Shown piece by piece: positions 4,292-39,736 of a stretch of DNA of 64,000 nucleotides. The DNA lies in IMG/VR virus record IMGVR_UViG_3300007177_000114; one strand, written 5' to 3'. Below the pieces are notes generated by a model. It was given only the letters and a program-made list of their open reading frames with translations. It ran no database searches and was not told the DNA's origin. Within the stretch, counting starts at the first letter, position 1. Each line of letters starts with the position of its first letter. The DNA is from a virus. Lineage: Duplodnaviria; Heunggongvirae; Uroviricota; Caudoviricetes. A program made the position numbers and the translations under genes.

Positions 4292-5140
4292 ATGGAAATT
4301 AGAATTGATATGGATGTCCTCAGACAGAGGAAATTATTTGTTGCCACGCCCATGTATGGTGGCCAATGCGCTGGTATGTTCACCAAATCAGTAGCAGACT
4401 TAGCAGCAATTTGTTCTGCAAATGGGCTTGATCTTAGATCATATTTTCTCTTTAATGAATCTCTTATCACTAGAGCTAGAAACTATTGTGTTGATGAGTT
4501 TATGCGTTCAGACTGCACACACATGATGTTTATTGACTCTGATATTGGTTTCGACCCCCGTGATATTATTGCCATGATGGCTCTTCAGTCTGATGAATCG
4601 GAATATGATGTTCTTGCAGGACCATATCCAAAGAAGACTATTTCTTGGGAAAAGATCAAGATGGCAGTCGATAAGGGTATTGCAGATGAAGATCCAACAG
4701 TTTTAGATAAATTTGTTGGTGATTATGTTTTCAATCCAAAAGCAAATACTACTCAGGTACGAATTGATGAGCCTGTAGAAGTTTCTGAAGTCGGCACCGG
4801 TTTTATGATGACTCGTCGTTCTGCTTTTGAAAAGTTTGCAAAGGCATTCCCTGAATATTCTTATAAGCCAGACCATATTCGCACTGAACATTTTGATGGT
4901 TCAAGGGAAATTATGCAGTACTTCCAGGCAGAAATTGACCCTGTATCAAAACGTTATCTATCAGAAGATTATTGGTTCTGTCAAAAGCTTATGGCCGTAG
5001 GTGGTAAGATTTGGTACTGCCCATGGATGAAACTTCAGCATGTTGGTAGTTATATTTTTGGTGGTTCACTTGCCGATCTAGCATCTATTGGTGCACCTGC
5101 TACTGCTGATCCTGCTCAACTCCGTAAAGGAAAGAAATAA
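4292..5140 (+). CDS. putative glycosyltransferase-like protein (DxD motif FIDSDIGF)
   Basis: 282-aa ORF; motifs FNESLITRARN, DSD and SEDYWFCQKL suggest a GT-A-like fold; no confident family assignment. Confidence 0.45.
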   Translation: MEIRIDMDVLRQRKLFVATPMYGGQCAGMFTKSVADLAAICSANGLDLRSYFLFNESLITRARNYCVDEFMRSDCTHMMFIDSDIGFDPRDIIAMMALQSDESEYDVLAGPYPKKTISWEKIKMAVDKGIADEDPTVLDKFVGDYVFNPKANTTQVRIDEPVEVSEVGTGFMMTRRSAFEKFAKAFPEYSYKPDHIRTEHFDGSREIMQYFQAEIDPVSKRYLSEDYWFCQKLMAVGGKIWYCPWMKLQHVGSYIFGGSLADLASIGAPATADPAQLRKGKK

Positions 5141-31528: not shown

Positions 31529-32566
31529 ATGAACGATCGTCTAGAGAATCCCGAAGTTCTTATTGGAATTGCAAAGAAGTATGCGCTTCGAGCGGGTGTT
31601 GCAGTAGTAGCACTAATGGCTGTAAATTCCACTTACTTTGTAGTTGATCCGACCGAAAGAGCTGGTGTTCGTGTATGGGGTACTGTTACAACTAAAGAAC
31701 CGGTGCAACCAGGGCTACACTTTAAGATTCCTTTTATCAGCTCGGTTGATAGAATTACAGTCAGCCAACAAAAAGTTCACGTACAGCCTTTTACTGTCAA
31801 TACTGTTGATAATCAGCTTATCACTCTTGACATTAATATTCTATATCGTACTCCAGATAGTGCTGTCTTTAAAAATCTTTATGAGATCGGCAAGACAGGA
31901 TCTGATGATCTAGGCCCACAGATGGTTTCTGTTATTCGTGACCGTGTAAGTCGTATCATTGCAAGTAAGAATACAATCACGATCTCTGCAAACCGTGAAG
32001 CTATTCAGAATGAAATTACCAATCAGGTGCATGAAGAGTTAGAGCAACTATTTGGCATCGACATGGAAAGTTTTCAGATCTCTGAAATTAAATTTAGCCC
32101 AGCATTTATGGCTTCCAATGAAGCTGCTGTTCGTAGCAAAAATGATGCTGTTGCCGAAGAAAATAAGAAGCGAGTCATTGAATTCCAGCAGCAGCAACAG
32201 GTTCTGATTGCAGAAGGACAGGCTAAAGTTCGAACTACGGAAGCAGATGCTGCAGCAAAGGCAATGTTTATTGCTGCGGAAGGTCAGGCTAAGTCTCAAC
32301 TAGCTCAAGCCCGTGCTGCAGCAGAAGCTGCTGTTATTGCTGCTGAGTCTCAAAAGAAAGCAATGACACTTACTGGTGAAGGTGAAGCTGCTCGACTAAA
32401 GGCAGTTGTTGATTCTTTTGGTGGGGCTTCAAATTATCTTGAAAGTCTTCGCATCAATGCTTCTTCAAAGTGGAATGGATCAGTTCCGAGCACTGTCATG
32501 AGCATGGGTGGAACTTCTACACCGTTTATGTTTAACATGCCGATGCCAGGAGGTACCAATAAGTAA
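31529..32566 (+). CDS. SPFH/band-7 (prohibitin/HflKC-like) domain protein
   Basis: N-terminal TM segment then a band-7-like region; Ala/Glu/Gln-rich coiled-coil C-terminus; 345 aa. Confidence 0.6.
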   Translation: MNDRLENPEVLIGIAKKYALRAGVAVVALMAVNSTYFVVDPTERAGVRVWGTVTTKEPVQPGLHFKIPFISSVDRITVSQQKVHVQPFTVNTVDNQLITLDINILYRTPDSAVFKNLYEIGKTGSDDLGPQMVSVIRDRVSRIIASKNTITISANREAIQNEITNQVHEELEQLFGIDMESFQISEIKFSPAFMASNEAAVRSKNDAVAEENKKRVIEFQQQQQVLIAEGQAKVRTTEADAAAKAMFIAAEGQAKSQLAQARAAAEAAVIAAESQKKAMTLTGEGEAARLKAVVDSFGGASNYLESLRINASSKWNGSVPSTVMSMGGTSTPFMFNMPMPGGTNK

Positions 32567-33486: not shown

Positions 33487-33846
33487 ATGGGTAATCGAAT
33501 TTCTGCTTTTCATGCTATTCCTTTTTCCAATAGTATTGGTCAAACAATTCTTCCTGGCGAAAAAATTATTTTTGCTGCAACTGCATGGAAAAATACTCGC
33601 ATTAAACAGGGTACATTTGATGGTGTAAATAAGGACTCTAAAGATCAGATTACATCTGTTCGAGTTTCTTATCCAATCAATAATTATGTTCATAATGGCA
33701 AATATGAACCGACTGTGCGTCAGCGCTATAATTATCAGACTCGTCGATATGAAGATTATACATATGATCGCCCTCTTTATGATATTGTTCCGGGTATCGG
33801 TCGTTCAACACTTCCTCTCAAGCGAGTCTTTAAGATTGCCGAATAA
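33487..33846 (+). CDS. hypothetical protein
   Basis: ATG 33487 (MGNRISAFHA...); 119 aa. Confidence 0.45.
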   Translation: MGNRISAFHAIPFSNSIGQTILPGEKIIFAATAWKNTRIKQGTFDGVNKDSKDQITSVRVSYPINNYVHNGKYEPTVRQRYNYQTRRYEDYTYDRPLYDIVPGIGRSTLPLKRVFKIAE

Positions 33847-33923
33847 GTAAAATTAAGGATTGGTTGCAGCAATAAAAAAGTTTTTTATTGGAAAAAAACA
33901 AACCACGCCAATCCGTTTAATAT

Positions 33924-33998
33924 GCAGATGTGATGTAATGGTTAGCAAAACGATCTCTAAAATCGTGTGTCAGGGTTCAATTCCCTGCATCTGCACCA
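33924..33998 (+). tRNA. amber-suppressor-type tRNA (anticodon CTA, reads UAG)
   Basis: Perfect acceptor GCAGATG/CATCTGC plus A plus CCA; D arm TGT-AATGGTTA-GCA; anticodon arm ACGAT-CTCTAAA-ATCGT (perfect 5 bp, U33, A37); T arm CAGGG-TTCAATT-CCCTG. Confidence 0.65.
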
Positions 33999-34127
33999 CT
34001 CCTTGATAAGGATATCAATATGATTATAATTTCGTTAAAAGAAACGTAGCAAGAATCCATTCGTGGTCCTCCCGTGGATTTATTATGAACTTTAACTACA
34101 GTGAAAATAAAACACAGGAGAACTAAA

Positions 34128-34778
34128 ATGAATGAAAATATCACTGCTGCATGGAAGCAGCTAGCTAATAAAAAATCAATTCAAAACTATGATGTAGCAG
34201 CATACTGTATCATCAAAGCTATCTTTGCTAAGTCTAACGAGAAACTTGAAGTAGCTAAAGCACTTCTTCTTAAATCATTCTCACCGATTGCTAAAGAATC
34301 TAAACTTAATAATGGTCACACAGAGTGGCAAGCACTAGCTAGTGCTATGGTTTGGATCTTTAGATCCTCACTTTATTCTGAACTCACAGAAGATGAAAAA
34401 GTTCAGTTTGATGATCTAACTAAGAAGCTCTTGAAAGAAGAATGGCAAGATAAGACTTATGCTTACATTCTGGTAAGAAAAGACCTACCACCAATTCAAC
34501 AGGTGGTGCAAGCCGCTCATGTGGCAATGGTTTTAGGTCAACAAGTTCCTAAACACAAAGCTGATGCTAGAAAGCAACATTTCTGTGTATTGGCTCTTGA
34601 AGATAATGAAGACCTTCTTAAGGAAATGGCTAAAGCTACTAGACTTAAGATTCCATTTGCTCGATTCTTTGAATCTGATATTAATCAGTATACCGCAATG
34701 GCTTATTATCCAATGAGAAAGTCATATGCTCAAAGAAAAAGACTTTTTGATGGAAGAAACCTATTGACAATATGCTAA
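34128..34778 (+). CDS. hypothetical protein
   Basis: AGGAG RBS then ATG 34128 (MNENITAAWKQL...). Confidence 0.5.
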   Translation: MNENITAAWKQLANKKSIQNYDVAAYCIIKAIFAKSNEKLEVAKALLLKSFSPIAKESKLNNGHTEWQALASAMVWIFRSSLYSELTEDEKVQFDDLTKKLLKEEWQDKTYAYILVRKDLPPIQQVVQAAHVAMVLGQQVPKHKADARKQHFCVLALEDNEDLLKEMAKATRLKIPFARFFESDINQYTAMAYYPMRKSYAQRKRLFDGRNLLTIC

Positions 34779-34792
34779 ATATGGTGTATTAT
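34764..34792 (+). promoter_or_regulatory. sigma70-like promoter TTGACA-N17-TATTAT in front of the Y-RNA-like array
   Basis: TTGACAATATGCTAAATATGGTGTATTAT; no intervening terminator before the 35582 gene. Confidence 0.45.
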
Positions 34793-34814
34793 ACCCTTAT
34801 AAATTAAAGAATAA

Positions 34815-34866
34815 GGGTTGGGTTCAGCATACAAAAGCTTTTTGAAACAGCAACCAAGTCCAACCC
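34815..34866 (+). ncRNA. Y-RNA-like unit 1 (terminal stem GGGTTGG/CCAACCC enclosing the GTTCAGCA...AACAGCAA motif)
   Basis: 7-bp inverted repeat flanking a 38-nt insert carrying the TTCAGCA/CAGCAA motif. Confidence 0.3.
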
Positions 34867-34877
34867 GTCTACTTTTT

Positions 34878-34939
34878 AGATTCGTTTCAGCAAATAAAAA
34901 GCAATGGACTGTTAATCCAAAACTGCAAAAAGCGAATCT
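34878..34939 (+). ncRNA. Y-RNA-like unit 2 (stem AGATTCG/CGAATCT, motif TTTCAGCAA)
   Basis: 7-bp terminal stem; conserved TTTCAGCAA directly 3' of the 5' stem strand; A-rich tract before the 3' stem strand. Confidence 0.35.
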
Positions 34940-34959
34940 GATTACTAATTTACGATTAA

Positions 34960-35058
34960 AGGATGGTTTCAGCAAACCATTATAGTAGCTCAATGGATGA
35001 GCAAGTGTCATCAAAACACTCGGTGTAGGTTCGAATCCTACCTAAAAAACACCATCCT
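34960..35058 (+). ncRNA. Y-RNA-like unit 3 with embedded tRNA-like domain (D arm, TCA anticodon-like hairpin, T arm GTAGG-TTCGAAT-CCTAC)
   Basis: Stem AGGATGG/CCATCCT; TTTCAGCAA motif; internal GCTC-AATGGAT-GAGC, AGTGT-CATCAAA-ACACT and a canonical T arm; no acceptor pairing of its own. Confidence 0.45.
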
Positions 35059-35072
35059 GATTTCTTACTAAT

Positions 35073-35171
35073 GGAATAAGTTCCGCAACATAAAATCTTC
35101 TTTTTGCACAAGGACCGTGAACGTTCGATTCGTTCGATGCCGAGGCTGGTGCCAGGAAAGGCTATTATTCC
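35073..35171 (+). ncRNA. Y-RNA-like unit 4 (stem GGAATAA/TTATTCC, motif GTTCCGCAA, T-arm-like GAACG-TTCGATT-CGTTC)
   Basis: 7-bp terminal stem; variant motif TTCCGCAA; internal T-arm mimic. Confidence 0.4.
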
Positions 35172-35184
35172 GATAACCAATTTA

Positions 35185-35311
35185 GAGTGACCTTTCAGCA
35201 ACCCAGTCAGATCTCTATAGAGATCATTCAGGAACAGCTAATAGATCTTCGGATGCTATTTGGCACCCAGGCTTTCGAATTTACCTGGTAAAAACAAAGA
35301 AGAAGTCACTC
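35185..35311 (+). ncRNA. Y-RNA-like unit 5 (stem GAGTGAC/GTCACTC, motif CTTTCAGCAA, T-arm-like CCAGG-CTTTCGAATTTA-CCTGG)
   Basis: 7-bp terminal stem; palindrome GATCTCTATAGAGATC; TTCGAAT-containing hairpin. Confidence 0.4.
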
Positions 35312-35329
35312 TGTTAACCCCTTAATTTA

Positions 35330-35448
35330 AGGATGCTTTCAGCAAATTGTCATTTGACAATGTTGGTTCAACTCCAACTTTCGCAACTTTGCGAAATCGC
35401 CTAATGGTAGGGCAATCGTTTTGTAAACGATGTTAAAAAAGGCATCCT
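35330..35448 (+). ncRNA. Y-RNA-like unit 6 (stem AGGATGC/GCATCCT, motif TTTCAGCAA, T-arm-like GTTGG-TTCAACT-CCAAC plus D-like and anticodon-like hairpins)
   Basis: 7-bp terminal stem; internal hairpins TTGTCA/TGACAA, TTTCGCAA/TTGCGAAA, ATCGT-TTTGTAA-ACGAT. Confidence 0.45.
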
Positions 35449-35461
35449 GTCTACTAAAAGT

Positions 35462-35562
35462 AGATTAACTTCCGCAAAAAAATAATCTCCAGTCACTTTT
35501 TTGTGACACTAAAAACCCATAAGTCGGGGTCAGGTTTGATATCCTGAATGACTTGTTAATCT
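35462..35562 (+). ncRNA. Y-RNA-like unit 7 (stem AGATTAAC/GTTAATCT, motif TTCCGCAA, T-arm-like TCAGG-TTTGATA-TCCTGA)
   Basis: 8-bp terminal stem ending 19 nt before the RBS of the Ro60-like gene. Confidence 0.4.
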
Positions 35563-35581
35563 GTAATGAAAGGAATATATT

Positions 35582-37012
35582 ATGAACGCTTTTGCTAAGG
35601 CTGCTCTAAACCAGACCGCTCGTACCACAAACGGTATGAAGGCTCTAAAGACTTCAACTAATCCATGTGTTGATCTTTTCTATAAGATCGGTGCCTCACG
35701 TGGTAAGAATATCATCCCAGATTTTGTTGCTGCTTATACTCATAATAAGGAAGTAGCAGGTCGTATTGCTCTCTGGGCTCGTGATGTTCGTGGTGGTGCA
35801 GGTGAACGTGAAATCTTCCGTTCTATCCTAACCTATCTTTCCGAACACGATCCAAATATGGCTTCTCGACTTGTACTCCGTACTCCTGAACTAGGTCGTT
35901 GGGATGACGTATTTGCAACAACCGGTGAAGCTCGAGTTACTGCCGTCGGTATGATCCGTCGTGCTCTAGCTACTCGTGATGGTCTTGCCGCAAAGTGGAT
36001 GCCACGTAAGGGCCCGGTTGCAATTGAACTTCGTAATGCTCTTGGTTTTACACCAAAGCAGTACCGTAAGACACTAGTAAATCTCTCAAATGTTGTTGAG
36101 AGTCAGATGTGTGCCAAGGATTGGGATAACATCAATTTCAATCATGTGCCATCTGTTGCTTCTGCTCGATACAAGAAGGCATTCAATCGCAACACTCCAA
36201 AGTACAAGGAATGGACTTCTAAGCTTGTCAGCACTGATCCAAAGGTCCGTGAGGAAGTAAAGATCAATGCTGGTGCTGTATATCCATACGATGTACTAAA
36301 GGGTAAGATCAATCACTATGGTTCTAGTTCCTACTCTCGTGCAGAACTCAATGCAGTTCTAGCTCAATGGGAAGCACTACCAAACTACATGAATGGGACT
36401 AACGTTCTTCCTCTGGTCGACGTTTCAGGATCCATGACATGTTCTGTTGGTGGATCCACCAAGACCGGTCTATCTTGTCTTGATGTTGCTGTTTCTCTTG
36501 GTCTGTACTGCGCAGACAAGAACACCGGTGATTTTAAGGACATGTTCCTTACTTTCTCTGGTTCTCCTGAACTTCTTACTCTTCGTGGTAATATTCTTCA
36601 GAAGATTGATCAGATGGTCAAGTCTAATTGGGCTATGAACACAAACATTGTTGCTGCAATGGACAAAATCCTTCGTACTGCAATTAATGGTAATGTTCCT
36701 CAAGAAGATATGCCAAAGATGCTGCTCATTCTTTCCGATATGCAGTTTGATCAATGCGCTCGTTTTGACCACTCTGCACTCGAGTCATTCCGTCACCAGT
36801 TCACAAAGGCTGGTTATGAAATGCCAAAGATCGTTTTCTGGAATCTTAACTCTCATGATAACGTGCCAGTTAAGGAGAATGAAAACGGAGTAGCTCTTGT
36901 TTCTGGCTTCAGCCCTTCTATTCTGAAGTCTGTTCTTTCTGCCGATCTAGAACAATTTACACCAGAAGCTATGATGATGAAGACTATCATGTCTGATCGT
37001 TACGGTTTCTAA
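35582..37012 (+). CDS. Ro60/TROVE-like protein with C-terminal vWA domain (MIDAS DVSGSM)
   Basis: 476 aa; AAGGAATATATTATG RBS; vWA MIDAS motif LVDVSGSMTCSVGGS near residue 283 and a following LILSDMQFD; N-terminal alpha-repeat region; immediately downstream of the stem-flanked tRNA-mimic RNA array. Confidence 0.5.
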   Translation: MNAFAKAALNQTARTTNGMKALKTSTNPCVDLFYKIGASRGKNIIPDFVAAYTHNKEVAGRIALWARDVRGGAGEREIFRSILTYLSEHDPNMASRLVLRTPELGRWDDVFATTGEARVTAVGMIRRALATRDGLAAKWMPRKGPVAIELRNALGFTPKQYRKTLVNLSNVVESQMCAKDWDNINFNHVPSVASARYKKAFNRNTPKYKEWTSKLVSTDPKVREEVKINAGAVYPYDVLKGKINHYGSSSYSRAELNAVLAQWEALPNYMNGTNVLPLVDVSGSMTCSVGGSTKTGLSCLDVAVSLGLYCADKNTGDFKDMFLTFSGSPELLTLRGNILQKIDQMVKSNWAMNTNIVAAMDKILRTAINGNVPQEDMPKMLLILSDMQFDQCARFDHSALESFRHQFTKAGYEMPKIVFWNLNSHDNVPVKENENGVALVSGFSPSILKSVLSADLEQFTPEAMMMKTIMSDRYGF

Positions 37013-37195
37013 TGAATTCGGTTCTAATCGTTCTTATGCTGGTCGGCGGAGTCCCACAAGGCTCCCCGATCAAGCTAGAGAGCACTGACTCATGTAAAGA
37101 TGAGATAAATACAGTTAATCATATGAATACTGTCTTTAAAAGACATAATTCAGAGATTGAATATAAAATTGTAGAGTGTAAGAATTCTTAGACTT

Positions 37196-37342: not shown

Positions 37343-38338
37343 ATGACTAAATTAGGCGTATTTATCGGGCGTTTTCAGCCCCTTCACGAAGGTCACATTG
37401 AAGCCATTTCAAATGCTTGCAAACAAGTGGACCTTCTTCTTGTCCTAATCGGATCGGCTAATCAGTGCCGCAGTGTAAAGAATCCGTGGACATATGATGA
37501 ACGACTCGAGATGTTTAAAGAAAAACTTGTTCTCGTTGATCGACGTATTGAAATTCTCCCCTTAAATGATTATCAGTATTCTGCTACGCAATGGATGGCA
37601 GATGTTCGTGCAAGCGTTGAGTATATCCAGGAAAAACACAAGATTACATCAGCACCAATTCTTTTTGGTCACATGAAAGAAGGTAATGATTATCTGAATT
37701 GGTTTCCTGATTGGAAATTTAAAAATATTTCCGCTAAGTATAAGATCAATGCCACGACTGTTCGACAAAATATGATCATGCAAAATGATCCAAAATTCCC
37801 TGCAACAGTTCTCCAAGATTGGCATTTCTATAATAAAGAACAAGAACTGTTTAAGAATTATCCATTCCCGGAAACTCTTAATTTCAATTGTTCTGATGCA
37901 ATTCTAGAATGTCAAGGTCATGTACTTTTAATTCAACGTAAGTTTGCACCAGGTGCTGGCTGTTGGGCTTTACCGGGAGGATTTAGAAACAACAAGGAAA
38001 CATTTCTAGATTGTGCCATTCGTGAACTACAAGAAGAAACAAATGTTCGAGTCCCAGAAAAAGTACTACGTGGATCAATTGTAAAGACACAATTATTTGA
38101 TTCACCTACTCGTTCCTTTGGTCTTCTACGAAATACATTTGCTGTCTATATGCGAATCAATCCAAATCTGGATTATTCTCTTCCTCGAGCAAATGGTGCT
38201 GATGATGCGGCTACATGTAAGTGGGTGCCTCTCACTGATGCTCTTAACTTATATGAACTTTATGATGACCATGCTGCAATCATTTCTACTATGACAGGTG
38301 TTATGCCGATGCCTGCTTTTACAAAACTTAAAAGATAA
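37343..38338 (+). CDS. natV: bifunctional NMN adenylyltransferase / Nudix ADP-ribose pyrophosphatase (NadM/NatV-like)
   Basis: N-terminal GVFIGRFQPLHEGH (HxGH nucleotidyltransferase) and C-terminal Nudix box AIRELQEETN; 331 aa; promoter TTGACT-N15-TATATAAT at 37273. Confidence 0.8.
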   Translation: MTKLGVFIGRFQPLHEGHIEAISNACKQVDLLLVLIGSANQCRSVKNPWTYDERLEMFKEKLVLVDRRIEILPLNDYQYSATQWMADVRASVEYIQEKHKITSAPILFGHMKEGNDYLNWFPDWKFKNISAKYKINATTVRQNMIMQNDPKFPATVLQDWHFYNKEQELFKNYPFPETLNFNCSDAILECQGHVLLIQRKFAPGAGCWALPGGFRNNKETFLDCAIRELQEETNVRVPEKVLRGSIVKTQLFDSPTRSFGLLRNTFAVYMRINPNLDYSLPRANGADDAATCKWVPLTDALNLYELYDDHAAIISTMTGVMPMPAFTKLKR

Positions 38339-38350
38339 GGAGTTTATCTT

Positions 38351-39736
38351 ATGAATATTCTTAAAAATATCCTGCTGAATGTTGATAGCTACAAACTCTC
38401 AATGTTTGAGCAATACCCAGAAGGGACTGAAATTGTCCACAGCTACATTGAATCCCGTGGTGGTGAACATGCTGAGACACTATTCTTTGGTCTACAGGGC
38501 TTCATCAAGGATTATCTTCTAAAGCCAGTCACCATGGAAGATATTAATATTGCAGAAGAAATTCTTCAAGCCCATGGTGAACCGTTTAATCGTGCCGGTT
38601 GGGAATACATTGTAAACAAACACGGTGGTAAATTACCAGTTCATATCTGTGCAGTACCAGAAGGTACCGTTGTTCCTGTTAGCAATGTTCTTGTAACTAT
38701 TGAAAATACAGATAAGAATTGTTTCTGGTTAACTACACATCTTGAAACAGCTTTACTTCGAGCAATTTGGTACCCTACAACTGTAGCAACTAACAGCAAA
38801 GCCATCAAGAATCTAATTAAAGAATTCCTTGAAAAGAATGGTGATCCTGCTGGTCTAGGTTTTAAATTACATGACTTTGGTGCTCGTGGTGTATCTAGTC
38901 AAGAATCCGCTGGGATTGGTGGTGCTGCCCATCTAATTAATTTCATGGGTACCGATACCATTGCTGGTATTCTTTGGGCTCGTGAACATTATAATGCTGG
39001 TGTTGCTGGTTTCTCTATTCCTGCAGCAGAGCATAGCACTATTACAAGTTGGGGTCGTCCTCATGAAGTAAAAGCATATGAAAATATGCTGAATAAATTT
39101 GCAAAGCCTGGATCCATTCTTGCTGTTGTAAGTGATAGCTATGATGTATTCAATGCAGCAGAAAATCTCTGGGGTGGTGAACTAAAGCAAAAAGTACTTG
39201 ACTCTGGTGCTACTCTGGTAATTCGGCCCGACTCTGGCCATCCAGTACATGTAAACTGTAAACTTGTAGAAATTCTAGATAATAAATTTGGTTCTACAAT
39301 CAATAACAAAGGATTTCGTGTTCTGAATAATGTGCGTTTGATTCAGGGTGATGGTGTTAATTTTGATACTGTCAAAAAGATTCTTACCGCATTCCATAAT
39401 GATGGATACTCTGCTGATAATATTGCCTTTGGTATGGGTGGTGCTCTTCTACAGCATGTCAATCGAGACACACAGAAGTTTGCTATGAAATGCTCTGCTG
39501 TGCGTGTTGGTCAGCATGATTGGAGAAAGGTTCTTAAAGATCCTATTACCGACTCTGGTAAGAAAAGTAAGGCAGGTCTACTTGAACTTTGGCGCAAAGA
39601 TAAAAACTTTGCTACTTCTGAAACTGCTCCTGAACTACTCAATGGTTGGGAACGTGGACTAGAAACCGTCTACCTAAATGGTGAACTAATCCGTGATATG
39701 ACCTTTGAGGAAATCAGGAATAATTCAAATGCCTAA
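38351..39736 (+). CDS. nadV: nicotinamide phosphoribosyltransferase (NadV/NAMPT)
   Basis: 461 aa, NAMPT-family length and motifs (GTDTIAG, DSYD); adjacent to natV, as in KVP40-like phages. Confidence 0.8.
   Translation: MNILKNILLNVDSYKLSMFEQYPEGTEIVHSYIESRGGEHAETLFFGLQGFIKDYLLKPVTMEDINIAEEILQAHGEPFNRAGWEYIVNKHGGKLPVHICAVPEGTVVPVSNVLVTIENTDKNCFWLTTHLETALLRAIWYPTTVATNSKAIKNLIKEFLEKNGDPAGLGFKLHDFGARGVSSQESAGIGGAAHLINFMGTDTIAGILWAREHYNAGVAGFSIPAAEHSTITSWGRPHEVKAYENMLNKFAKPGSILAVVSDSYDVFNAAENLWGGELKQKVLDSGATLVIRPDSGHPVHVNCKLVEILDNKFGSTINNKGFRVLNNVRLIQGDGVNFDTVKKILTAFHNDGYSADNIAFGMGGALLQHVNRDTQKFAMKCSAVRVGQHDWRKVLKDPITDSGKKSKAGLLELWRKDKNFATSETAPELLNGWERGLETVYLNGELIRDMTFEEIRNNSNA

Follow-up and report, generated by a model that had tools for sequence, protein, structure and literature searches.

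A locus of a T4-like phage with a Ro60-fold protein gene and an array of Y-RNA-like elements carrying tRNA mimics

Why does a phage carry, directly in front of a gene for a Ro60-like protein, a row of short elements with paired ends and tRNA-like interiors, and do the RNAs and the protein belong together? The locus that raises this question lies in a 64,000-nucleotide (nt) stretch of the viral record IMGVR_UViG_3300007177_000114 (IMG/VR), referred to below in its full length as the window. In agreement with the original prediction, the phage is T4-like (gp43-type polymerase, UvsX, gp41-type helicase and gp44-type clamp loader are all encoded); the window holds 28 tRNA or tRNA-like genes, and a nucleotide search of deposited phages with it returned no close relative and a sole match of 40 nt. 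Ro60/Y-RNA particles occur in animals and in about 5% of bacteria. The best reading of our results is that the locus is a Y-RNA-like ribonucleoprotein system with a novel putative protein-binding handle and modular tRNA mimics, and we consider it likely that it encodes, as an operon, the parts of a Ro60-like particle: the protein would bind the handle and the inserts would present tRNA shapes. This reading builds on the anatomy of the locus, conservation, covariation, the protein fold and gene linkage across phyla. Since a Ro60-shaped protein and RNAs made of handle and mimic recur together in distant phages and in Treponema, the system looks like an undescribed relative of Ro60 and its Y RNAs.

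The Ro-like protein and the RNA units in front of its gene

The protein of 476 amino acids (Ro-like protein) scores far above the Pfam cut-offs for DUF7788 (159 bits, cut-off 27.1, E = 1.3e-46) and DUF2828 (72.1 bits, cut-off 29, E = 5.4e-20), and matches PHROG 850, 'RNA-binding protein', at E = 2.6e-140; NCBIfam gave no match. In an AlphaFold2 model, an N-terminal ring of helical repeats is followed by a C-terminal vWA domain, which is the overall Ro60 fold, and the top five structural matches in Foldseek are all Ro60 (E = 2.7e-8 to 3.5e-6), spanning ring and vWA domain. The metal ion-dependent adhesion site and the helical N-terminal region noticed at the outset are both present: D280, S282 and S284 of the DxSxS motif, together with T354 and D386, do not vary among 59 homologues, and many invariant Arg and Lys residues lie in the N-terminal half (residues 14-203). 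The family is large, with at least 8000 clusters at 90% identity (E 1e-5) and a homologue in 706 deposited phage genomes; in cluster L mycobacteriophages it is annotated as 'Ro-like RNA binding protein'.

Eight RNA elements (units) accompany the gene. Seven of them, at 34815-35562, had been described already, and all seven inverted repeats are exactly as listed, that of unit 5 lengthening to 8 base pairs (bp); the eighth, unit 0 at 33857-33914, had been overlooked. Scores in bits below refer to a covariance model, R1, that was built from short units.

33857..33914, + strand: unit 0, stem GGATTGG/CCAATCC, motif TTG-CAGCAA, inner AU hairpin
34764..34792, + strand: sigma-70-type promoter TTGACA-17-TATTAT, 11 of 12 consensus matches, function predicted
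34815..34866, + strand: unit 1, stem GGGTTGG/CCAACCC, motif GTT-CAGCAT, small insert
34878..34939, + strand: unit 2, stem AGATTCG/CGAATCT, motif TTT-CAGCAA, 57.6 bits
34960..35058, + strand: unit 3, stem AGGATGG/CCATCCT, motif TTT-CAGCAA, 29.7 bits, non-seed
35073..35171, + strand: unit 4, stem GGAATAA/TTATTCC, motif GTT-CCGCAA, 30.8 bits with filters off
35184..35312, + strand: unit 5, 8-bp stem AGAGTGAC/GTCACTCT, motif CTTT-CAGCAA, fold z = -2.7
35330..35448, + strand: unit 6, stem AGGATGC/GCATCCT, motif TTT-CAGCAA, 27 bits, non-seed
35462..35562, + strand: unit 7, stem AGATTAAC/GTTAATCT, motif TT-CCGCAA, 29.4 bits with filters off
35569..35574, + strand: Shine-Dalgarno sequence AAAGGA of the Ro-like gene, read in the sequence
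35582..37012, + strand: Ro-like gene, Ro60-fold protein of 476 amino acids, Pfam DUF2828 and DUF7788, PHROG 850

The terminal stem of each unit is a perfect inverted repeat of 7-8 bp and is present in the minimum-free-energy fold of every unit. In units 1-7, the motif C(A/C)GCA(A/T) begins 2-4 nt after the 5' strand, and an A-rich tract precedes each 3' strand. Of 32 matches to TTCMGCA in the 64 kb of the window (both strands; shuffles lead one to expect about 17.7), seven fall inside this 650-nt array, all on the + strand. With filters off, the R1 model recovered seven of the eight units at 27-58 bits, four of them non-seeds, and even then missed unit 5; it found no units elsewhere in the window, so that all adjoin the Ro-like gene. 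All other unit detection relied on custom pattern scans. Unit 0 was found by a stem-and-motif scan, scores 44.9 bits with R1 and has an orthologue in the related loci L250 and L251.

The promoter at 34764 is present as described, and the related locus L004 has its counterpart in front of unit 1. It is predicted to serve both the array and the Ro-like gene, and would be an early promoter if the locus works as we propose. The claim that the array reads into the gene is borne out as well: between the promoter and the stop codon at 37012 there is no terminator-like site on the + strand. Unit 7 ends 6 nt before the Shine-Dalgarno sequence, and in most relatives, as in the window, GAAAGGA comes after the last unit.

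The handle and its tRNA-like inserts

As relatives we used 80 IMG/VR loci that encode 54-86% identical proteins. Nearly all of them have two to eight units immediately in front of the gene, the last one separated from the ATG by about 15-25 nt. The consensus of 214 distinct units is UUU-AGGWUNN-NWW-C(A/C)GCAA-[15-240 nt]-A-rich-NNAWCCU-G-UU. Its constant part, the handle, consists of a terminal helix of 7-8 bp, a single-stranded NWW-C(A/C)GCAA strand, an A-rich strand and a 3' unpaired G, and the minimal units, 34 nt long, contain little beyond it and no insert.

The pairing of the handle was assessed without prior selection for pairing by picking C[AC]GCA[AT] sites by sequence alone within the 1200 nt that precede the genes. 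For 152 of 236 distinct sites (64%), a 7-mer that is perfectly complementary and in register lies at most 260 nt away, compared with 0-6% in shifted registers and 2-4% on the minus strand. In an alignment of 51 short units, double changes occur at six of the seven stem pairs and the covariation score of the stem is 0.80 (shuffles, 0.19; slid registers, no higher than 0.13); the percentage of paired positions in this alignment is uninformative, because the set was chosen for pairing. RNAalifold independently predicts the identical terminal stem.

Orthologous units carry the same signature. The stem of unit 2 (AGATTCG/CGAATCT) appears in L248 with a compensatory change as AGATTTG/CAAATCT, that of unit 4 (GGAATAA/TTATTCC) is compensated in an orthologue as AGAATAG/CTATTCT, where the T-arm stem (GGTCG/CGACC) is compensated too, and the orthologous stems of unit 3 (AGGATGG/CCATCCT) read AGGATAT/ATATCCT and AGGATGT/ACATTCT. 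Relatives with 95% identity have units 5 and 6, whereas those with 84-86% lack them (unit 5 occurs in L248 and L249, not in L250 or L004), so the array gains and loses members. The original prediction had staked itself on conservation of the stems and motifs in homologous phages; such conservation is seen there and far beyond, accompanied by compensatory changes.

These data bear directly on the simplest alternative, namely that the units are chance inverted repeats or a mobile repeat family, for example a miniature transposable element. AT-rich intergenic DNA does yield many short inverted repeats, and in-register matches have a background of 2-6%, but the excess of paired sites over the controls is large, the stems vary between units yet are compensated between orthologues, the elements always point the same way as the gene, and their conservation reaches across phyla. 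Contradicted by in-register pairing, covariation and orthologue compensation, this explanation was rejected, and we regard it as extremely improbable.

What the handle encloses is tRNA-like far more often than expected. Among 167 units, 34 hairpins of at least 4 bp have the canonical T loop UUCRANY (0.6 expected) and 58 have an anticodon-like loop Y-U-NNN-R-N (12.8 expected). The inserts include anticodon stem-loops, T arms, whole tRNA bodies and permuted tRNA bodies, and CUUGUAA, the anticodon loop of Thr (UGU), is among the commonest mimic loops.

The window itself displays much of this range. The insert of unit 2 is an anticodon-stem-loop mimic, a 4-bp hairpin with the 7-nt loop CUGUUAA. 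Five units had been credited with T-arm mimics, which are canonical in units 3, 4 (GAACG-UUCGAUU-CGUUC) and 6 and degenerate in the other two: one of the three hairpins of unit 5 has a degenerate T-loop-like UUCGAAU, and one of the two or three hairpins of unit 7 is a degenerate T-arm-like one. Unit 6 contains a complete tRNA body that is circularly permuted at the variable region, in the order extra hairpin, T arm, loop-closed 7-bp acceptor stem, D arm and anticodon arm (loop UUUGUAA); it folds far better than shuffles (z = -5.4) and gives a partial match to the Rfam tRNA model (29.3 bits). Inside unit 3, positions 34979-35050 form a tRNA-like body with D, anticodon and T arms in their normal order, which reaches 50.1 bits with the Rfam tRNA model (RF00005; gathering threshold 29) and is also called by ARAGORN. 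The earlier description of this body as lacking an acceptor stem of its own needs correction: a weak one is present, with five of seven pairs formed and two mismatched. Position 33 is A, CCA is not encoded, and the anticodon is UCA, as it is in L004.

Are the units then merely decayed or unusual tRNA genes or fragments, or processing punctuation, whose flanking stems are leader-trailer processing helices? The score of unit 3 on the tRNA model, the frequency of T arms and anticodon-like loops, and the one-for-one substitution of units for tRNA genes in arrays would fit such an origin. The CAGCAA motif and the handle are, however, non-tRNA features, the 34-nt units lack any tRNA part, purifying selection, with covariation, acts on the handle in hosts as distant as Listeria, Mycobacterium and Treponema, and the tRNA region of T4, used as a control, is devoid of handles. 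We therefore regard this origin as improbable.

In two phages, Cronobacter phage S13 and Synechococcus phage BUCT-ZZ01, the handle is itself closed by a hairpin loop, at the following positions:

L003, 4877-4997: tRNA gene with closed handle
L003, 5007-5119: tRNA gene with closed handle
L001, 4581-4696: tRNA gene with closed handle
L001, 4711-4824: tRNA gene with closed handle

Here, the tRNA genes are complete (full acceptor stem, D arm, T arm, encoded CCA end) except at the anticodon loop, whose place is taken by a tetraloop-closed handle that runs from an A-rich tract through a stem closed by a GNRA-type loop to WAUUC(A/U)GCA; GenBank labels these genes as 'tRNA-Ser' or 'tRNA-OTHER' of 113-121 nt. 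This is the identical two-part design in opposite topology. The closed form is genuine in these two phages only; in a scan for it across T4-like loci, almost all matches were T arms plus ACCA ends of real tRNAs and were discarded.

Linkage of units and gene in other phages and in Treponema

If the units and the protein belong together, what happens to their linkage outside the close relatives of the window? We followed it in the retrieved loci, in one complete genome (Felixounavirus REP5) and in one negative control (the T4 tRNA region). The handle adjoins the gene in phages that share little else. Listeria phage A511 has three units upstream of the gene, with the RNA ligase RtcB 1.3 kb away, and Campylobacter phage Los1 has two upstream; REP5 has four units downstream, among tRNA genes, mycobacteriophage Silverleaf has two downstream, and in BUCT-ZZ01 and S13 the handle also lies beside the gene. 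Across the complete REP5 genome (88.9 kb), covariance-model matches with E < 0.05 lie solely within 1 kb of the gene, and in the T4 tRNA region R1 found none. Two GenBank annotations in REP5 (L084) are doubtful, an 86-nt 'tRNA-OTHER' (4677-4762) and a 131-nt 'tRNA-Thr' (4863-4993); the latter overlaps the units at 4828-4897 and 4917-5042 and is therefore probably a mis-called unit.

The linkage extends to cellular genomes. About 28 assemblies of Treponema and other spirochaetes, including the complete chromosome of T. ruminis, encode a 31-35% identical homologue, and in Treponema the units lie on both sides of the gene, some with a CUUGUAA hairpin. RtcB is encoded directly upstream on the same strand in 12 spirochaete loci: in T. 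ruminis RU1 (L229 274-4730) and 11 others, the order is WCX-domain protein, RtcB, one unit, DUF2828 protein and three units. The WCX-domain protein is of the WYL-regulator type and the arrangement is operon-like. Two loci, L224 of T. bryantii and L241, have a genuine tRNA-Thr(UGU) between their units.

Starting from the RNA instead of the protein, we searched IMG/VR for the pattern TTTAGGATNNNWWCAGCAA and examined 80 stretches, in which 92 of 109 pattern matches form units. The gene is present in 29 of the stretches; all 36 matches that have it in the same stretch share its strand and lie a median of 562 nt from it. The other matches belong to arrays of tRNA genes, sharing the strand of the neighbouring tRNAs at a spacing of 5-10 nt. 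By spacing and strand, units thus behave as genes of tRNA arrays and do not need contact with the protein gene.

It is this behaviour that gives some credit to the possibility that another factor, such as RNase P, RNase E, RtcB or a phage factor, recognises the handle, and that the gene is simply a frequent neighbour in tRNA-related early regions. In its length the stem also matches an acceptor stem, and the unpaired G behind it resembles a discriminator base; RtcB, too, is linked to the Treponema units. Yet the DUF2828 gene is the only neighbour common to the T4-like, Herelleviridae, Felixounavirus, Campylobacter, cluster-L mycobacteriophage and Treponema loci, RtcB is absent from the window and the T4-like loci, and every RNA-first match with a gene nearby is on the strand of that gene. 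Recognition by such a factor in place of the Ro-like protein is, in our judgement, unlikely.

A second alternative concerns the position of the units relative to the gene. Vibrio phage KVP40 has a single handle-like unit at its Ro-like gene (L002 2966-3006; GACATT-TTACAGCAA-...-AATGTC), with the Shine-Dalgarno sequence in the loop and the start codon in the 3' strand, which by its sequence looks like a translational operator. Together with the placement of the last unit against the Shine-Dalgarno sequence in nearly all relatives, and with the terminator-free interval between array and gene, this could mean that the units act purely in cis, as a structured leader for translational self-repression or mRNA stability, and never become free RNAs. 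However, in Felixounavirus and Silverleaf the units follow the gene, in Treponema they flank it on both sides, many units sit in tRNA arrays kilobases from any copy of the gene, and an operator role leaves the choice of tRNA parts as inserts unexplained. We give a purely cis-acting leader the same low standing as recognition by another factor. An operator role of the last unit alone is compatible with a Ro60-like particle: as this unit abuts the ribosome-binding site, the protein may also repress its own translation, and the position of the last unit and the arrangement in KVP40 suggest such an added autoregulatory role.

Several further genes surround the array. A tRNA with the amber-reading anticodon CUA and an encoded CCA end (33924-33998; Rfam tRNA 59 bits; labelled tRNA-Pyl by ARAGORN) begins 9 nt downstream of unit 0, and a 'tRNA-Pyl' call likewise lies near units in L167; with the UCA (opal) anticodon of the unit 3 body, two stop-codon anticodons adjoin the Ro-like gene. 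Between unit 0 and the promoter, an open reading frame (ORF) for 225 amino acids (34101-34778) weakly matches the peptidyl-tRNA hydrolase PTH2 (Pfam E = 0.0025, below the cut-off) and PHROG 1866; if real, the PTH2-like assignment would place a further tRNA-related function beside the array. A Band-7/SPFH protein (31529-32566; Pfam E = 6.4e-26) is encoded 3 kb upstream of the Ro-like gene, the order PstS-like gene, Band_7 gene, array and Ro-like gene is shared by L250 and L251, and Silverleaf has a band-7-like gene (L086 502-1380) about 1 kb upstream of its Ro-like gene; none was found within 3 kb in more distant T4-like loci. We rejected the Band-7 gene and the PTH2-like ORF as conserved partners, their synteny being restricted to the closest relatives. 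On the other side, the Ro-like gene and an ORF for 59 amino acids (37012-37191) share the sequence ATGA, in which the start of the ORF overlaps the stop of the gene, and translation of the ORF may be coupled to that of the gene; the product is 65% identical in L004 and L005, the gene is called in L248 and L250, and no family match was found. Directly downstream (37343-39736) lie two genes of nicotinamide adenine dinucleotide salvage, for a bifunctional nicotinamide mononucleotide adenylyltransferase-Nudix protein and a nicotinamide phosphoribosyltransferase, a pair that resembles those of KVP40-type phages and is syntenic in L004, L249 and L250.

Proposed working, known relatives and meaning

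How might such a system work? One early promoter would drive a row of small non-coding RNAs together with the mRNA of the DUF2828/DUF7788 Ro60-fold protein. Each RNA would combine the conserved handle (helix consensus 5'-AGGWUNN...NNAWCCU-G-3', the 5' strand continuing directly into NWW-C(A/C)GCAA) with a variable insert that imitates a tRNA or a piece of one. Cleavage of the transcript within the AU-rich spacers would release discrete RNAs, and the protein would bind the handle in the way Ro60 binds the closing stem of a Y RNA. The inserts could then display tRNA shapes to tRNA-acting proteins, either recruiting repair or turnover enzymes, as the RtcB ligase next to the cellular versions may hint, or diverting host defence nucleases that target tRNA. 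We think that the system probably acts in tRNA damage, repair or anti-defence; the clues are the RtcB linkage in Treponema and A511 and the activity of the phage protein gp130, described below, against the Ppl defence system (PMC11482910).

Several results weigh against this picture. On the protein side, TROVE (PF05731) is unmatched at E <= 10 (Pfam gave DUF7788, DUF2828 and a weak VWA_2 alone), a profile of 59 homologues recovered no Ro60 chain among PDB sequences, where a search with the single sequence also gave nothing relevant, and the AlphaFold2 model is of moderate confidence (predicted local distance difference test 72, predicted template modelling score 0.66). The proposed identity with Ro60 thus survives for the fold and fails for the family: of the profiles suggested as a check, DUF2828 is above its cut-off, VWA_2 only weak and TROVE silent, and given the structural matches the protein has Ro60 architecture but is non-TROVE by sequence models. 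On the RNA side, neither Y_RNA (RF00019) nor YrlA (RF02553) matches within 33840-35600 at E <= 10; searches with Rfam 15, first of 5 kb and then of 1.8 kb at this threshold, gave tRNA matches alone. Unit 1, whose stem is kept in all relatives compared, has a degenerate motif in some of them (CAGCAU in the window, CAGCC in L248 1009-1060 and L004 2511-2562) and may be a decaying copy. The 51 RNA-first stretches that lack the gene indicate that adjacency is not obligatory. Finally, gp130 of the Felixounavirus Bas63, whose membership in the DUF2828 family we infer from synteny with REP5, suffices on its own, whether supplied by a plasmid or by T7, to counter Ppl (PMC11482910), and its anti-Ppl activity is therefore independent of phage RNAs.

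The comparison with bacterial Y RNAs shows where the likeness begins and ends. As in the bacterial systems of Ro60 (Rsr) with YrlA and YrlB, including the Ro60-Y RNA-PNPase complex, a gene for a ring-plus-vWA protein stands beside small RNAs in which the two ends pair, the 5' strand of the resulting closing stem leads into a conserved unpaired motif, and the distal part is a tRNA mimic; in YrlA the motif is GNCGAA, and the distal part of bacterial Y RNA mimics tRNA (PMC4201824). The RtcB genes adjoining the DUF2828 homologues of Treponema likewise recall Salmonella rsr, with its arrangement rsr-yrlBA-rtcBA (PMC4201824, PMC7790460). The YrlA layout of paired ends around T arm, loop-closed acceptor stem and D arm is found in unit 6 and in units of L084, L086 and L016; the remaining units have other inserts or none. 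Three units in relatives match the YrlA model through these parts (T arm, closed acceptor stem, D arm) at 39-46 bits, below its gathering threshold of 69, and the alignments rest on the tRNA-like domain, not on the handle. The handle motif NWW-C(A/C)GCAA differs from the GNCGAAN0-1G of YrlA, so that the units do not share the YrlA motif; with the non-matches in Rfam, this makes them Y-RNA-like in design and not members of Y_RNA or YrlA. The Y-RNA likeness first proposed thus stands for the paired-end stem, the motif and the tRNA-like domain, and does not extend to a family match for any unit of the window. Further differences are that the DUF2828 protein, unlike Rsr, lacks a TROVE match, that bacterial Rsr loci have one or two RNAs whereas DUF2828 loci have up to eight or more units, and that, unlike in YrlA, the inserts range over bare mimics of an anticodon stem-loop, tRNA bodies in normal order and one tRNA whose permutation lies at the variable region, while some units have none. 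Taken together, the non-matches to TROVE, Y_RNA and YrlA place the locus outside these curated families, as a system that is Ro60/Y-RNA-like in its working.

Among phages, Y-RNA-like genes are already known to stand upstream of canonical, TROVE-type Ro60 genes (PMC12135203, PMC4201824). In the closest such case, Thermus phage phiLo, Yrl1 and Yrl2 lie directly upstream of the phage-encoded Ro60 (PDB 9KOP, 9L5Y; PMC12135203). Unlike the protein of the window, phiLo Ro60 belongs to TROVE; CGAA is the motif of its RNAs (PMC12135203), of which there are just two, without an array or varied mimics of tRNA parts. The two proteins share about 15% sequence identity. With phiLo we group, as a near system, the YrlA-like RNAs that Chen et al. 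reportedly found in mycobacteriophages in 2014.

The Bas63 protein gp130 is Ro60-like by structure and is encoded directly upstream of a stretch of tRNA genes, and the authors of this preprint, a PhageMaP study, guessed that some of the annotated Bas63 tRNAs might be Y RNAs (PMC11482910). The gene position matches that of the DUF2828 gene in REP5, where four handle-bearing units are mapped here among the tRNAs; the Bas63 report defines no RNAs. In T4, rnaC and rnaD (species 1 and 2) resemble the units as small stable RNAs of unassigned role inside a T4-type tRNA cluster. We rejected them as homologues: they lack the handle, R1 gave nothing, and reading the T4 tRNA region revealed no stem followed by CAGCAA. 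T4 is not known to have a DUF2828 gene. Burroughs and Aravind reportedly proposed in 2016 that Rot/TROVE and Band-7 scaffolds work with cognate RNAs, which may bear on the DUF2828 family.

Ro60/Y RNA particles, the tRNA mimicry of YrlA and the 'Ro-like' annotation of the protein family are thus prior knowledge. In contrast, the CAGCAA handle, its pairing with DUF2828 proteins in phages and Treponema alike, the expansion into arrays and the modular mimics of tRNA parts were not found in Rfam 15 or the searchable literature, in line with the expectation that such an array had not been described. The observation behind the original prediction is confirmed as real, and its interpretation as a Ro60/Y-RNA-type system is supported: two of the outcomes named beforehand as refuting it, a protein devoid of Ro60 similarity and a lack of conserved stems and motifs in homologous phages, were looked for and did not arise.

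A wider view, which we offer tentatively and hold to be possible though short of an even chance, is that Ro60-type systems have a large, so far overlooked branch, made up of DUF2828 proteins with CAGCAA-handle RNAs and spread over many phage families and Treponema. The RNAs would then be a modular library of decoys or adaptors made from tRNA parts, and the arrays would neutralise tRNA-cleaving immunity or channel damaged tRNAs to repair enzymes such as RtcB. At the level of sequence comparison, the DUF2828 proteins appear to be a second family with the Ro60 fold, seemingly unrelated in sequence to the first and with its own class of RNA partner. This partner is easily recognised and is frequently mis-called as an odd tRNA in annotations. 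A covariance model of the handle would improve the annotation of phage genomes. With swappable pieces of tRNA on a short, defined handle, the role of Y-type tRNA mimicry becomes open to direct experiment, in a system that is tied both to phage counter-defence, through Bas63 gp130 and Ppl, and to RtcB-based RNA repair.

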